This document shows, one piece after another, positions 44,473 through 50,450 of a stretch of 64,000 nt of DNA. The first letter of the stretch is position 1. Each line of letters starts with the position of its first letter. The stretch lies in the NCBI RefSeq assembly GCF_045037415.1, contig NZ_CP173438.1. One strand, given 5' to 3'. Below the pieces are notes generated by a model. The model was given only the letters and a program-made list of their open reading frames with translations. It did not search any database and had not been told where the DNA came from. Origin of the DNA: Escherichia coli. Lineage in GTDB: Bacteria > Pseudomonadota > Gammaproteobacteria > Enterobacterales > Enterobacteriaceae. The translations under genes and the position numbers were made by a program.

Positions 44473-45352
44473 ATGAGCGACGACAATTCACACAGTAGTG
44501 ACACGATAAGCAACAAGAAGGGATTTTTCTCCCTGTTACTCAGCCAACTTTTCCACGGTGAACCGAAAAACCGTGACGAACTGCTGGCGCTGATCCGTGA
44601 TTCCGGGCAGAACGACCTTATCGACGAAGATACGCGCGATATGCTCGAAGGGGTGATGGACATCGCAGACCAACGCGTTCGCGACATCATGATCCCCCGC
44701 TCCCAGATGATTACCCTGAAACGCAACCAGACGCTGGACGAATGCCTTGATGTCATCATCGAGTCCGCCCACTCACGTTTCCCGGTGATTAGCGAAGACA
44801 AAGATCACATTGAAGGGATTCTGATGGCGAAAGACTTGCTGCCGTTTATGCGCAGCGATGCTGAAGCCTTCAGCATGGACAAAGTGTTACGTCAGGCGGT
44901 TGTCGTTCCTGAAAGTAAGCGCGTAGACCGGATGCTGAAAGAGTTTCGCTCTCAGCGTTACCACATGGCGATCGTCATTGACGAATTCGGTGGGGTTTCC
45001 GGTTCTCGTGACCATTGAAGACATCCTGGAACTGATTGTTGGTGAGATTGAAGACGAGTATGACGAAGAAGATGATATCGACTTCCGTCAGCTGAGTCGT
45101 CATACCTGGACCGTGCGCGCACTGGCTTCTATTGAAGACTTCAACGAAGCGTTCGGCACCCACTTTAGCGATGAAGAGGTTGACACTATCGGTGGTCTGG
45201 TGATGCAGGCATTTGGGCATCTTCCGGCGCGTGGCGAAACCATCGACATCGACGGTTACCAGTTCAAAGTGGCGATGGCCGACAGTCGGCGTATTATTCA
45301 GGTTCATGTCAAAATCCCGGATGACTCACCCCAGCCGAAGCTGGATGAATAA
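44473..45352 (+). pseudogene. corC: Magnesium/cobalt efflux protein CorC (YbeX), disrupted by +1 frameshift
   Basis: CorC is encoded by ORF 44473..45018 (frame 1) continuing in ORF 44978..45352 (frame 2); the join is at ggt-t-ctc around 45004, consistent with one extra T. Confidence 0.8.
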
Positions 45353-45376: not shown

Positions 45377-46915
45377 ATGGCTTTTGCCTCATTAATTGAA
45401 CGCCAGCGCATTCGCCTGCTGCTGGCGTTATTATTCGGTGCCTGCGGAACGCTGGCCTTCTCTCCTTACGACGTCTGGCCTGCGGCGATTATTTCGCTGA
45501 TGGGACTTCAGGCGCTGACCTTTAACCGCCGTCCACTCCAGTCTACCGCTATTGGCTTTTGCTGGGGATTTGGCCTCTTTGGCAGCGGTATTAACTGGGT
45601 CTATGTCAGCATCGCGACCTTTGGCGGAATGCCTGGCCCGGTTAACATCTTCCTGGTGGTACTGCTGGCGGCGTATTTGTCGCTGTATACCGGACTGTTT
45701 GCTGGCGTGCTGTCGCGTCTGTGGCCGAAAACCACCTGGCTGCGCGTGGCGATTGCCGCCCCTGCTCTCTGGCAAGTGACCGAGTTTCTGCGCGGTTGGG
45801 TACTTACAGGCTTCCCGTGGTTACAGTTCGGCTATAGCCAGATTGATGGCCCGTTAAAAGGGCTGGCACCGATAATGGGCGTGGAAGCCATTAACTTCCT
45901 GCTGATGATGGTTAGTGGCCTGCTGGCACTGGCGTTGGTCAAACGCAACTGGCGTCCGCTGGTGGTGGCCGTCGTGCTGTTTGCCCTTCCCTTCCCGCTG
46001 CGTTACGTCCAGTGGTTTACCCCGCAACCGGAGAAAACCATTCAGGTTTCGATGGTTCAGGGCAATATTCCGCAATCGCTGAAATGGGACGAAGGCCAGC
46101 TTCTTAATACGCTGAAGATTTACTACAACGCAACGGCACCGCTGATGGGCAAATCATCGCTGATTATCTGGCCGGAGTCGGCGATAACCGATCTGGAAAT
46201 TAATCAGCAACCGTTCCTCAAAGCTCTGGACGGTGAGTTGCGCGATAAAGGTAGCTCGCTGATCACCGGGATTGTCGACGCGCGTCTCAATAAACAGAAC
46301 CGCTACGATACCTACAACACCATCATCACACTGGGTAAAGGCGCACCGTACAGCTATGAATCAGCCGATCGCTATAACAAAAACCATCTGGTGCCGTTTG
46401 GCGAGTTTGTCCCACTGGAGTCGATTCTGCGTCCATTAGCACCGTTCTTTGATTTGCCGATGTCGTCATTCAGCCGCGGACCATATATTCAGCCACCGCT
46501 GTCGTTGAATGGCATTCAACTTACTGCGGCCATTTGCTACGAAATCATTCTCGGCGAGCAAGTGCGCGATAACTTCCGCCCGGATACCGACTATCTGCTG
46601 ACTATCTCCAACGATGCGTGGTTTGGTAAGTCTATTGGTCCATGGCAGCACTTCCAGATGGCGCGAATGCGTGCGCTGGAGCTGGCGCGCCCACTGTTGC
46701 GCAGCACCAACAACGGCATTACGGCGGTGATTGGCCCGCAGGGTGAGATTCAGGCGATGATCCCGCAGTTCACCCGCGAGGTGTTAACCACTAACGTAAC
46801 GCCGACCACCGGACTCACCCCGTACTCACGTACCGGCAACTGGCCACTGTGGGTGCTGACGGCACTGTTTGGCTTTGCCGCTGTACTGATGAGTCTGCGT
46901 GCTCGCAAACGTTAA
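45377..46915 (+). CDS. lnt: Apolipoprotein N-acyltransferase
   Basis: 512 aa; N-terminal polytopic domain plus C-terminal nitrilase-like domain. Confidence 0.95.
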
Positions 46916-46918
46916 TGT

Positions 46919-46947
46919 GCCTGATGCGCGACGCTTATCAGGCCTAC
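46919..46947. repeat. REP element
   Basis: gcctgatgcgcgacgcttatcaggcctac. Confidence 0.45.
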
Positions 46948-47013
46948 GCGATTTTTGCAATATGTTGAATTTTCGCGATTTTGTAGGATAAAGCGTACTT
47001 TTTCAACACGCTC

Positions 47014-47040
47014 TGGGGCATGATTATCATGCCCTTTTTT
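47014..47040 (+). terminator. Hairpin with T-tract after lnt
   Basis: gggcatgat-t-atcatgccc then tttttt. Confidence 0.5.
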
Positions 47041-47041
47041 C

Positions 47042-48919
47042 TTACGGTTCAGGGATACAAGCCACATCGCCATATTGGGGATGCCGAATAATTGCCTGCG
47101 GATCAAGTGAACTTTCTCTGTCCAGTTGTATTAGCCCGTTCTTCGCCATAACAAATATCTTTCTACCATCCGCTGAAAAACGAAGATGATTCACGTAGCT
47201 GGCAGGATAAACGCCAATAATCTGCCCGGCATTAATATTGAGCAGGATGACATAACCTTGCAGGCCATATGACACCAACGCTAAATATTGACCGTCCGGG
47301 CTAATACCCTCAACGGAATAAACGCTCCTGCTACACCATTGCGTCATAATGCTGGCTTGTTGATCCTCAGCTCTTATACGTGAAATCCCCTGGCTATCGG
47401 CAAAAATAATCTCACCATTTTTTGGTCGGAATCCCATCGCAGAAACGACACCACGCGCATCACCTGCGGGAAAGTCTTCTTTCTGATGCGTGATGGTATT
47501 GATCCGCACGATGTTACCTCTGCCTGCTCCCGGAACCAGTAATGTTTTTTCATCCGGGGAAAGTGCCATAACCCAGGCGCCTGGTTTACCGCTCATCCCC
47601 GTCCCGTCGTATTTCTCCAGCGGGATATCCGCCACATGCTGATAAGCCACCAGATCAATCGCTGACACACTATTACTGGTGCGATTCATCACCCAGGCTT
47701 TTGTGCCATCACGCGAGAGGATAAGGCTGTCAGGATGTGCGCCGGTGGTAATCGACTGAATAATCTCCCCCGTTGCCACGTTAATGACCGATAATGCATT
47801 CGCTTCAAATGAAGTCGCATACAGCAACGTTTCATCCGGGCTTAGCGCCAGCGACCTGACGCCCTGATCTTTACAGCCACCACAATGTTTGACTGACTTT
47901 TCTTTCGCTATGGGGGCTGTAAAGGTATGCAGGATTTTCTTTTGTCCGAGGTCGAAAACAACAATGCTGTTCGTGTTTTCAATTGCGGCATACAACGTAT
48001 TAGCATCCCGACTGATCGCCATATCATGGATATCGGCAATCTCAGCGAGTAAATCACCACTGGCCTGCTCACGACTTACCGGAGCGGATAATGTTTCCCT
48101 GAGGGCGTTGCGCTCCTCCACTAACTGCTGCTTTTTTTGTCGTCGCTCTTGTTCAATCTCCTGCGGATAAAACGCTTCACGCAGGCTTTGCCTGACCTGT
48201 AAAACTGATTCATCAATCTGCTGCTGCACAAGCCAGATAGTCCCGGTCAGAAGAAGAGTGACCGCAACAATAATCCCGCCTTCCGTAACGAGCCGATTTT
48301 GCCCAACTAAACGCGCACTCAGCCAACCCAACGCGCCCCCCGCAATCAGGCCGCCAATGTGGCAAGCGTTATCTATTCCTGTTTGCCGGGTACCATACAA
48401 CAGTGTCAGCGCCACCATACCCAACAGAGGAAATACTCGCCGCTGGTTTTTATGGTGTGTGCCCGCACCTGAAGCAAGCTGTGTTGCTATCGCAGCGCCC
48501 GCTATTCCCATAATTGCCCCGGATGCCCCAACGCTGATGACTATCTGCTCACTTTCGCGTAACGCATAACAGGCGCTGATCAGCCCACCAAAGATGCCGG
48601 AGAATAACCAGATAATCAGGAGTCGCCATTTCCCCAGTATCCGTTCCGCCACTGTCCCCACCACCAGGAGTGCAAACATATTCATCAGCAAATGGGAAAA
48701 ACTACTGTGCAGAAAAACACTGCTCAATAAGCGCCAGGATTCATCCGACAACGTGAGAGAAGCAACGTTAGCGCCGAGATGGATGAGTGCGGATTGATCG
48801 ACTTCTTCGTAACTCATCCATTGTGCGAGGTAACAAAATATCCCAACACAGAGCGCAAAAAGGATCAGGGTTATTGCGGGTAATTGAACATTTAACGGCT
48901 TAACCGAAGATGCAGACAT
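47042..48919 (-). CDS. Rhomboid-family intramembrane serine protease fused to a C-terminal YVTN-type beta-propeller
   Basis: 625 aa; rhomboid signatures WR...F.H..F.H, catalytic GASG and HIGGLIAG; about 7 TM segments; coiled-coil-like linker; six or more roughly 40-residue propeller repeats. Confidence 0.85.
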   Translation of the reverse strand: MSASSVKPLNVQLPAITLILFALCVGIFCYLAQWMSYEEVDQSALIHLGANVASLTLSDESWRLLSSVFLHSSFSHLLMNMFALLVVGTVAERILGKWRLLIIWLFSGIFGGLISACYALRESEQIVISVGASGAIMGIAGAAIATQLASGAGTHHKNQRRVFPLLGMVALTLLYGTRQTGIDNACHIGGLIAGGALGWLSARLVGQNRLVTEGGIIVAVTLLLTGTIWLVQQQIDESVLQVRQSLREAFYPQEIEQERRQKKQQLVEERNALRETLSAPVSREQASGDLLAEIADIHDMAISRDANTLYAAIENTNSIVVFDLGQKKILHTFTAPIAKEKSVKHCGGCKDQGVRSLALSPDETLLYATSFEANALSVINVATGEIIQSITTGAHPDSLILSRDGTKAWVMNRTSNSVSAIDLVAYQHVADIPLEKYDGTGMSGKPGAWVMALSPDEKTLLVPGAGRGNIVRINTITHQKEDFPAGDARGVVSAMGFRPKNGEIIFADSQGISRIRAEDQQASIMTQWCSRSVYSVEGISPDGQYLALVSYGLQGYVILLNINAGQIIGVYPASYVNHLRFSADGRKIFVMAKNGLIQLDRESSLDPQAIIRHPQYGDVACIPEP

Positions 48920-49372
48920 AAGGTGATTCTTCCTTGAAAAGACTAGTAAAAAGCATTTTCCCGTGTGTAGTTATCATCCCGGCAAACGTCCCACACCGAA
49001 AAGTTAACACTGTCCGAAATATGACTTTTTCAAACTGAAATTACAATCGTAATTAATTCACCCCTAAGTATTTTTTGGCATGTAAGTTGCTTTATTTACT
49101 GTGTAAGCAATGAAATCAGCCGCAACGCAACCGGGTTGCACCACCACAAATCAGCGGTAGCACCAAAAAGGTGCGGTTTAAGAATTTTGCTTCGGAATGG
49201 TGCGGCGCACCTCGCAAAAACAAACAATAAAACAGCAATATCTTTACATTTATCCAAACTAAATGTTACCTAACAAGCACAACACTGCACAATAAAGTCG
49301 CAGATGATAACAACACAAACACTCACAACGGGTATCCATGCGTTTTTAACGCAGAAGATAAAGGAGTTGGAT

Positions 49373-50281
49373 ATGCAATTACGTAAACCTGCCACAGCAA
49401 TCCTGGCCCTGGCGCTTTCCGCAGGACTGGCACAGGCAGATGACGCCGCCCCGGCAGCTGGCAATACGCTGGACAAAATCGCCAAAAACGGCGTGATTGT
49501 CGTCGGTCACCGTGAATCTTCAGTACCTTTCTCTTATTACGACAATCAGCAAAAAGTGGTGGGCTACTCGCAGGATTACTCCAACGCCATTGTTGAAGCA
49601 GTGAAAAAGAAACTCAACAAACCAGACTTACAGGTGAAATTGATTCCGATCACCTCACAAAACCGTATTCCACTGCTGCAAAACGGCACTTTCGATTTTG
49701 AATGCGGTTCTACCACCAACAATGCCGAACGCCAAAAACAGGCGGCTTTCTCTAACACTATTTTCGTGGTCGGTACGCGCCTGCTGACCAAAAAGGGCGG
49801 TGATATCAAAGATTTTGCCGACCTGAAAGGCAAAGCCGTAGTCGTCACTTCCGGCACCACCTCTGAAGTTTTGCTCAACAAACTGAATGAAGAGCAAAAA
49901 ATGAATATGCGCATCATCAGCGCCAAAGATCACGGTGACTCTTTCCGTACCCTGGAAAGCGGTCGTGCCGTTGCCTTTATGATGGATGATGCTCTGCTGG
50001 CCGGTGAACGTGCGAAAGCGAAGAAACCAGACAACTGGGAAATCGTCGGCAAGCCGCAGTCTCAGGAAGCCTATGGTTGCATGTTGCGTAAAGACGATCC
50101 GCAGTTCAAAAAGCTGATGGATGATACCATCGCTCAGGTGCAGACCTCCGGTGAAGCGGAAAAATGGTTTGATAAGTGGTTCAAAAATCCAATTCCGCCG
50201 AAAAACCTGAACATGAATTTCGAACTGTCAGACGAAATGAAAGCACTGTTCAAAGAACCGAATGACAAGGCACTGAACTAA
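49373..50281 (+). CDS. gltI: Glutamate/aspartate ABC transporter periplasmic binding protein
   Basis: ORF 49304..50281 trimmed to ATG 49373 (aaggag RBS); signal peptide MQLRKPATAILALALSAGLAQA; 302 aa. Confidence 0.9.
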   Translation: MQLRKPATAILALALSAGLAQADDAAPAAGNTLDKIAKNGVIVVGHRESSVPFSYYDNQQKVVGYSQDYSNAIVEAVKKKLNKPDLQVKLIPITSQNRIPLLQNGTFDFECGSTTNNAERQKQAAFSNTIFVVGTRLLTKKGGDIKDFADLKGKAVVVTSGTTSEVLLNKLNEEQKMNMRIISAKDHGDSFRTLESGRAVAFMMDDALLAGERAKAKKPDNWEIVGKPQSQEAYGCMLRKDDPQFKKLMDDTIAQVQTSGEAEKWFDKWFKNPIPPKNLNMNFELSDEMKALFKEPNDKALN

Positions 50282-50284
50282 TTA

Positions 50285-50437
50285 CAAGAACCAGGGGCGG
50301 AAATTCCAGCCCTCTCGATTGTTACGTAGCACGGACAGACTATACGCCTGGTGGTCGTTCCCCATCGGGCCTGAAAACCGCAATACGCTGGGTAACAATC
50401 TTCGAGGGTAGCAGTTAACGCTGCTACCCTCTTTTTT
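50285..50437 (+). ncRNA. sroC: SroC-like sRNA region (gltI-gltJ spacer) ending at an intrinsic terminator
   Basis: 169-bp structured spacer; 11-bp stem gagggtagcag / ctgctaccctc at 50404..50431 followed by tttttt; 5' end not determined. Confidence 0.4.
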
Positions 50438-50450
50438 CTGGAGTAGATTT

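Follow-up and report, generated by a model that had tools for sequence, protein, structure and literature searches.

The stretch of DNA analysed here (called the window; 64,000 nucleotides of Escherichia coli contig NZ_CP173438.1, assembly GCF_045037415.1) contains, between the genes lnt and gltI, an uninterrupted open reading frame (ORF) of 625 codons whose product combines a rhomboid protease core with a predicted C-terminal β-propeller. The gene is located on the minus strand, convergent with lnt (45377..46915, plus strand) and divergent from gltI, whose annotated start is found around position 49372 (plus strand). In the record of strain SK1144 a protein 100% identical to it is annotated as "rhomboid family intramembrane serine protease". 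Here, we relate this gene to Rhom7, the accessory second rhomboid intramembrane serine protease of Escherichia and Shigella. We consider it very probable that the account as a whole is correct, namely that the window carries a Rhom7 allele, that its periplasmic propeller likely is a protein-binding module and that the gene is an old one which has often been deleted or frameshifted. The features of the locus are collected in Table 1.

The gene product and its relation to Shigella Rhom7

A second rhomboid of Shigella sonnei, SSON_0610, was described by Liu et al. (EMBO J 2020; PMC7232013) under the name Rhom7, with seven predicted transmembrane (TM) domains and the pair Ser133/His187. The sequence printed in Fig EV1 of that paper comprises 625 residues, starts with MSASSVKPLNVQLPAITLILFALC and ends with RHPQYGNVACIPEP; these are the termini of the window protein, in which Ser133 and His187 also bear the same numbers. 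The S. sonnei database proteins P0006 and P0013 show 92-93% amino acid identity over 100% of the window protein. From the shared length, termini and catalytic positions together with this high identity it follows that the window gene, judged from its sequence, is the E. coli orthologue (an allele) of Rhom7. Its near-identical full-length product of 625 residues with Ser133 and His187 falls into the Rhom7 orthologue group and has the same layout of seven TM helices plus a C-terminal domain; at about 93% identity, the differences amount to some 7% of the amino acids and define the allele class. In all E. coli carriers examined the gene resides between lnt and gltI, and for S. sonnei the tag SSON_0610 is only suggestive of this position.

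The Shigella enzyme has been investigated experimentally. Wild-type Rhom7 cleaves a TatA-based model substrate and either S133A or H187A abolishes this cleavage, whereas variants without TM7 and the C-terminal domain, or without the C-terminal domain alone, still cleave it (PMC7232013). Expressed from a plasmid, Rhom7 cleaves HybA, the TM domain of HybO (HybO-TMD) and FdnH, and full-length HybA and FdnH are cleaved once they are orphaned from their complexes (PMC7232013). The novelty that the first-pass annotation implied for this fusion is therefore lost, since the gene is the orthologue of one already characterised. The protease itself is known.

Residues 60-201 match the Pfam profile Rhomboid (PF01694) with an E-value of 7.8e-29, and structures of GlpG and iRhom are matched by sequence (those of GlpG with E-values of about 1e-3 to 1e-10). 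All motifs of the core that had been read at first pass (WR, the two histidines, the serine of GASG and the histidine of HIGGLIAG) are present, with W62-R63 in loop L1, H71 and H76xxxN80 in TM2, G131-A-S133-G134 at the start of TM4 and H187-IGGLIAG194, i.e. the catalytic histidine and the GxxxG motif, in TM6. In the alignment of 56 full-length homologues R63, H76, G131-A-S133-G134, H187, G190 and G194 are invariant and W62 and N80 are kept in at least 90% of the sequences. An AlphaFold2 (AF2) model was built on a 56-sequence alignment and has a mean predicted local distance difference test (pLDDT) score of 87; its core helices span residues 15-34, 74-95, 97-121, 133-149, 152-178 and 184-203 and the L1 loop residues 35-73. 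The profile match, the Ser/His motifs and the WR and HxxxN signatures place the protein in the rhomboid protease family (MEROPS S54). Two narrower assignments were rejected, namely rhombosortase/GlyGly-CTERM (TIGR03902; 44.1 bits versus a cut-off of 84) and the GlpG equivalogs TIGR04239 and NF008155 (42.4 and 36.9 bits versus cut-offs of 250 and 335, respectively).

The C-terminal part is matched by the YVTN repeat profile TIGR02276 with 53.3 bits (curated cut-off 27.85; E-value 2e-14) and by PF21783 (E-value 3.5e-4). A phmmer search relates it to 1l0q, the YVTN propeller of a Methanosarcina S-layer protein (E-value 3e-23), and the same structure ranks first in the Foldseek search of the PDB (E-value 1.3e-19), followed by other seven-bladed propellers including G-beta, which likewise has an N-terminal helix. 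Structural matches to the propeller alone in the AlphaFold database (AFDB) are YncE-type, lactonase-type and YVTN proteins. In the AF2 model 28 β-strands form seven groups of four between residues 289 and about 620. With the repeat profile and the closed seven-bladed fold of the model taken together, the C-terminal domain is predicted to be a seven-bladed propeller of the YVTN/YncE type, which makes precise the "six or more" blades counted at first pass. The charged, coiled-coil-like linker described there corresponds to two amphipathic or charged AF2 helices (residues 237-250 and 253-275), the second of which includes the charged stretch EIEQERRQKKQQLVEERNALRE. It is followed by a PxPVSxExAxG motif, in which V281, A286 and G288 are nearly invariant in the homologue alignments. 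Structure prediction, which had been proposed as a check, thus returned the rhomboid core, TM7, the linker and seven blades.

The word "propeller" is absent from the Rhom7 paper (PMC7232013), which says only "C-terminal domain" and leaves the fold unnamed, as well as from a 2025 review, where Rhom7 is listed under UniProt Q3Z4D6, and no relevant paper on a bacterial rhomboid-propeller fusion was found in the literature searched. At the same time the fold is evident from routine annotation, i.e. from precomputed Pfam propeller families and existing AFDB models. The locus adds no new kind of system, as the system is Rhom7, and it offers clarification rather than surprise. What is added here is the predicted nature of the Rhom7 C-terminal domain as a seven-bladed YVTN propeller that is mounted on a helical stalk, is probably stapled by disulfides and would lie in the periplasm.

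Table 1. Features of the lnt-gltI interval and of the rhomboid gene, in window coordinates
Feature	Position	Strand	Basis or remark
Complete coding sequence, Rhom7-type rhomboid-propeller protease	47042..48919	-	625 codons plus stop codon at 47042-47044
Shine-Dalgarno-like AAGGAAG	48929..48935	-	9 nt 5' of the ATG; inferred from direct reading of the sequence
Six-TM rhomboid core, residues 1-203	48311..48919	-	PF01694, GlpG structure matches, AF2, invariant motifs
Catalytic Ser133 codon (GASG)	48521..48523	-	Motif; S133A inactivates S. sonnei Rhom7 (PMC7232013)
Catalytic His187 codon (HIGG)	48359..48361	-	Motif; H187A inactivates S. sonnei Rhom7 (PMC7232013)
Predicted seventh TM helix, residues 209-233	48221..48295	-	Hydropathy, AF2 helix, K/R-rich cytoplasmic loops
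Predicted periplasmic helical linker with conserved PxPVSxExAxG motif	48056..48220	-	AF2 helices 237-250 and 253-275; alignments
Predicted seven-bladed YVTN/YncE-type β-propeller, residues 289-625	47045..48055	-	TIGR02276, 1l0q, Foldseek, AF2 (7 x 4 strands)
Segment present or absent among E. coli	46901..49127		blastn and local alignment; right edge maybe nearer 49074
GC-rich hairpin with a T-run behind it, in the spacer where lnt and the rhomboid gene converge	47015..47035	+	Consensus scan only

Distribution and history of the locus

The distribution among E. coli genomes, also suggested for checking at first pass, was determined with a query of 2451 nt that spans the gene; genomes with a match at a coverage of at least 80% were counted as carriers. 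The segment is carried by 3231 of the 5426 complete genomes and the others match only the 223 nt adjoining gltI, so the gene is accessory. A universally present and already characterised core gene had been named as one outcome that would speak against the first-pass annotation, and this holds in part: the gene is already characterised, and it is not universal. In MG1655 the order is gltI - IS5D/insH3 - lnt and there is no rhomboid gene, in agreement with what was stated for K-12 at first pass. This absence explains why rhomboid research based on K-12 never met Rhom7.

The suspicion that the insertion sequence (IS) IS5 replaced the gene in K-12 was rejected upon alignment. IS5 interrupts the shared sequence upstream of gltI at about 49266-49273, i.e. 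outside the indel and some 140-200 bp from its edge, and SCEC020007 and many other strains have neither the gene nor IS5; the idea of a displacement by IS5 has to be corrected accordingly. The sequence of gene-less genomes follows that of the window as far as 46900, 15 nt short of the lnt stop, and resumes it from 49128, or possibly from about 49074. Between these points about 110-166 nt of unrelated filler replace the segment, as seen in blastn comparisons of a gene-less contig (L003) and an IS5-bearing one (L002) with the window. A deletion scar was not found: the gene has no significant counterpart in the 166-nt filler, of which only the right-hand 48 nt give a weak, colinear alignment with 49074-49121 (score 14 versus a shuffle mean of 11.8 and a shuffle maximum of 17). 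The last five lnt codons (window 46901-46915; L003 2835-2849) differ, so that the protein ends in SLRARKR in carriers and in SLRQRRK in gene-less strains, because the breakpoint between both forms falls inside the 3' end of lnt. The spacer between lnt and the rhomboid gene (126 nt, 46916-47040) opens with a palindrome resembling repetitive extragenic palindromic (REP) sequences, GCCTGATGCGCGACGCTTATCAGGC, which was spotted by eye only, and the filler of gene-less strains bears a different REP-like sequence.

Besides complete absence there are common defective alleles. P0029, with 640 member sequences, encodes 440 amino acids with an out-of-frame N-terminus near His187, in P0036 the frame shifts near residue 337, and Met137 is the first residue of P0025 and P0027. 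Such truncated and frameshifted forms are consistent with ongoing loss. For the intact alleles, comparison of the window allele with two others of about 93% nucleotide identity gave ratios of non-synonymous to synonymous substitution rates (dN/dS) of 0.26 for the core and 0.16-0.18 for the propeller, which indicates that these alleles are under purifying selection. The dS values between these E. coli alleles, about 0.18-0.22, mean that the alleles are old. Rhom7 alleles are unusually divergent (93-94% nucleotide identity between the window and contigs L089, L090 and L091), and the class found in the window is a minority. This divergence suggests old allelic lineages or recombination at the locus.

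From these data the gene could be regarded as a decaying relic in E. coli, i.e. as an ORF that looks intact, does little or nothing at present and is heading for a loss already complete in K-12 and O157. About 40% of the complete genomes are without the segment, the defective alleles mentioned above are abundant and dN/dS, at about 0.2, is not particularly low; moreover, the Shigella knockout is phenotype-free and native expression is too low for detectable cleavage (PMC7232013). We consider this explanation rather unlikely, as the window and most of the sampled carriers have an intact ORF and dN/dS is far below 1 in both domains, while architecture and position are kept at 49-58% identity in other Enterobacteriaceae and at least 50 clusters at 50% identity with the same architecture occur in other Proteobacteria.

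The position of the gene is shared beyond E. coli. Homologues with the orientation seen in the window lie between gltI and lnt in Klebsiella aerogenes (49% identity) and in another enterobacterial contig (53% identity). The GC content of the gene is like that of its flanks and no integrase, tRNA, direct repeats or IS were found at the junctions of the carrier form. Synteny, flank-like GC content and the lack of anything mobile at the borders all argue for an ancestral gene, and the simplest reading is that of an old resident of the lnt-gltI interval of Enterobacteriaceae that was repeatedly lost in E. coli lineages including K-12. A horizontally acquired islet, with K-12 retaining the ancestral empty site and receiving IS5 later, would also account for the presence/absence polymorphism with non-homologous filler, for the different last codons of lnt and for the high divergence of alleles (dS about 0.18-0.22). 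It is nevertheless improbable, because a homologue of 49-53% identity at the same place in K. aerogenes and in the second contig fits vertical descent, neither the GC content nor the carrier junctions bear a mark of transfer and the IS5 of K-12 occupies a separate site.

Membrane topology, relatives and the proposed role of the propeller

In the rhomboid core both the N- and the C-terminus are cytoplasmic, as is established by the structures of GlpG, so a seventh TM helix puts the remaining chain outside. Such a helix, already suspected at first pass, is indicated by a hydropathy segment at about residues 210-235 and by AF2 helix 209-233; it comprises 25 residues, is hydrophobic and is flanked by R203 and R208 on one side and by an acidic segment on the other. 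Lysines plus arginines number 3, 3 and 2 in the predicted cytoplasmic loops versus 1, 1 and 1 in the periplasmic ones, and the family means show the same trend. By prediction the protein is thus a rhomboid of the 6+1 TM type whose C-terminal domain is extracytoplasmic. Exactly four cysteines, here Cys346, Cys349, Cys529 and Cys621, are found in this domain in 46 of 56 family members, and losses tend to be paired: both sequences without the first cysteine also lack the second, and six of the eight without the third also lack the fourth. This probably reflects two disulfides, as expected in an oxidising compartment, with the pairing inferred from the pattern of loss. For S. sonnei Rhom7 the program Phobius gave the same topology (PMC7232013). 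The periplasmic location of the propeller, as the first-pass annotation had it, therefore has good support from the predicted 6+1 TM topology, the positive-inside rule and the paired cysteines.

A cytoplasmic propeller, in a role comparable to that of the N-terminal domains which GlpG and YqgP have in the cytosol, would require that helix 209-233 does not span the membrane or that the core is inverted, and even though the topology is a prediction here and AF2 does not model the membrane, this is very improbable in view of the 25-residue hydrophobic helix with R203/R208 on one flank and acidic residues on the other, the orientation of the core fixed by GlpG structures (N-terminus inside, and inside again after TM6), the four conserved cysteines lost in pairs, the agreeing Phobius result and the extracytoplasmic location of YVTN/YncE-type relatives.

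The first pair of cysteines (region of residues 342-349; window 47873-47896) varies in its spacing. It forms CxxC (HCGGC) in Escherichia and Cx4C in most distant homologues and is deleted in K. aerogenes; the loop that holds it is the only one of the modelled propeller with low confidence (pLDDT below 50). The pair could form a small loop closed by a disulfide, or else serve as a site for a metal or for redox chemistry.

For the wider family, 1.84 billion representative sequences were scanned exhaustively with HMMER. Its proteins have about 610-690 amino acids and align with the window protein from residue ~10 to ~610 in one stretch at 28-35% identity; at least 38 of the best 150 matches do so and about 15 more align in two or three stretches. 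The architecture is common to at least 50 clusters at 50% identity in Proteobacteria, with examples from Paraburkholderia, Phytopseudomonas, Trinickia and Uliginosibacterium. A contig search seeded on the catalytic histidine motif found mostly ordinary rhomboids and a propeller-bearing match in contigs L009, L010, L050 and L087 only. In Uliginosibacterium gangwonense (L010, 1650-5878) three co-directional ORFs of unknown function are located directly upstream of the rhomboid-propeller homologue; one of them weakly resembles the kinase part of class III/IV lanthionine synthetases, and the three are not conserved at the other loci examined.

Several known proteins invite comparison. GlpG of E. 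coli (PDB 2ic8) shares the core fold, WR, HxxxN, GxSG and the histidine with GxxxG, but it carries an N-terminal domain in the cytoplasm, has only six TM helices, lacks a periplasmic domain and is encoded by a core gene. In contrast, the window protein has almost no N-terminal extension, a predicted TM7 and a periplasmic extension of 390 residues and is accessory; it is a paralogous rhomboid and not GlpG. AarA from Providencia stuartii is another bacterial rhomboid with seven TM helices (about 30% identity) and its alignment ends near Rhom7 residue 281. Its extra helix is N-terminal (1+6) and it has no large extramembrane domain. It was the BLAST probe by which Rhom7 was found (PMC7232013).

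The nearest cores outside the family belong to the GluP/YqgP-type enzymes, in which a rhomboid is combined with tetratricopeptide repeats (TPR), with 35-40% identity over the core. They have the same 6+1 TM layout, and their C-terminal part, outside the cytoplasm, is likewise a repeat domain made to bind proteins; both YqgP and Rhom7 have been linked to membrane-protein quality control (PMC7231995, PMC7232013). In contrast with the window protein, Bacillus subtilis YqgP has a short TPR array in place of the propeller and possesses a metal-sensing cytosolic N-terminal domain. Deletion of the TPR domain of YqgP raised the activity 4-6 fold on two substrates (PMC7231995), which suggests, by analogy, that such domains restrain or regulate the protease. 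The rhomboid-propeller design is kept in many Proteobacteria, with the propeller taking the place of the TPR domain in GluP/YqgP. On the side of the propeller, 1l0q, E. coli YncE (3vgz) and hydrazine synthase beta (5c2v) belong to the same repeat family and fold as residues 289-620 and all of them are extracytoplasmic; they are soluble or surface proteins or enzyme subunits, however, and none is fused to an intramembrane protease.

From these comparisons a mechanism can be proposed. The six TM helices would form a GlpG-like core in which the dyad Ser133/His187 opens toward the periplasmic leaflet. TM7 would lead the chain to the periplasm, where a helical stalk of about 40 residues would bear the propeller with its probably two disulfides. 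The core is expected to cleave single-pass TM segments with small residues and a helix-breaking proline, on the basis of orphan HybA, FdnH and the TatA model substrate of the orthologue (PMC7232013). The propeller would not be part of the catalytic machinery; its most likely role is that of a module for protein binding, by which clients or partners exposed to the periplasm are selected or gated. The role in substrate recruitment or sensing that had been proposed for it is, by analogy with the repeat domains discussed above, a reasonable one.

Several points weigh against this picture. The geometry between the domains of the AF2 model is unreliable (predicted template modelling score, pTM, 0.64). 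Data on activity come from a Shigella protein of about 93% identity and not from the window allele, and on the model substrate the propeller is dispensable, so its recruiting role is putative. Expressed from the chromosome, Rhom7 is too scarce for detectable cleavage of HybA or FdnH, and the S. sonnei glpG rhom7 double mutant was without phenotype in growth, Biolog, oxidative stress and type III secretion system (T3SS) assays (PMC7232013). Finally, no conserved neighbour gene that would name a partner was found among the distant homologues (L005, L006, L010, L050), and blastp of the unknown neighbours of L005 against those of L010, L006 and L050 gave no matches. Since these neighbourhoods share nothing, the protein appears to be a stand-alone unit.

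It is conceivable, albeit on balance doubtful, that the propeller is an auto-inhibitory gate or a sensor rather than a passive appendage. As a gate it would keep Rhom7 all but inactive and so account for the lack of detectable activity at native level, and release would occur only when it binds a specific ligand in the periplasm or a periplasmic client domain left exposed and unassembled. If this were true, the at least 50 rhomboid-propeller clusters would represent a distinct class of signal-gated intramembrane proteases in parallel to GluP/YqgP. Few physiological substrates of bacterial rhomboids are known and their control by extramembrane domains is almost uncharted. The propeller fold gives a handle for finding native clients or ligands.

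Minor features of the window

The hairpin between the convergent genes (Table 1) is likely the terminator of lnt, as its sequence suggests. Within 46850-49400 three promoter-like sites were found versus 4.2 expected from shuffled sequences; there is no excess and no promoter is proposed. Upstream of lnt the gene corC (ybeX; 44473-45352) is split into two overlapping ORFs by one extra T at about 45003. The site reads ccggTTctcgtg in the window and ccggTctcgtg in SK1144, which is otherwise 99.98% identical to the window over 8.45 kb; either corC truly is a frameshifted pseudogene in this strain or the extra T is an error of sequencing. The small RNA SroC (Rfam RF00369, 172.6 bits) is located at 50277-50439 (plus strand) in the gltI-gltJ spacer, as in K-12.

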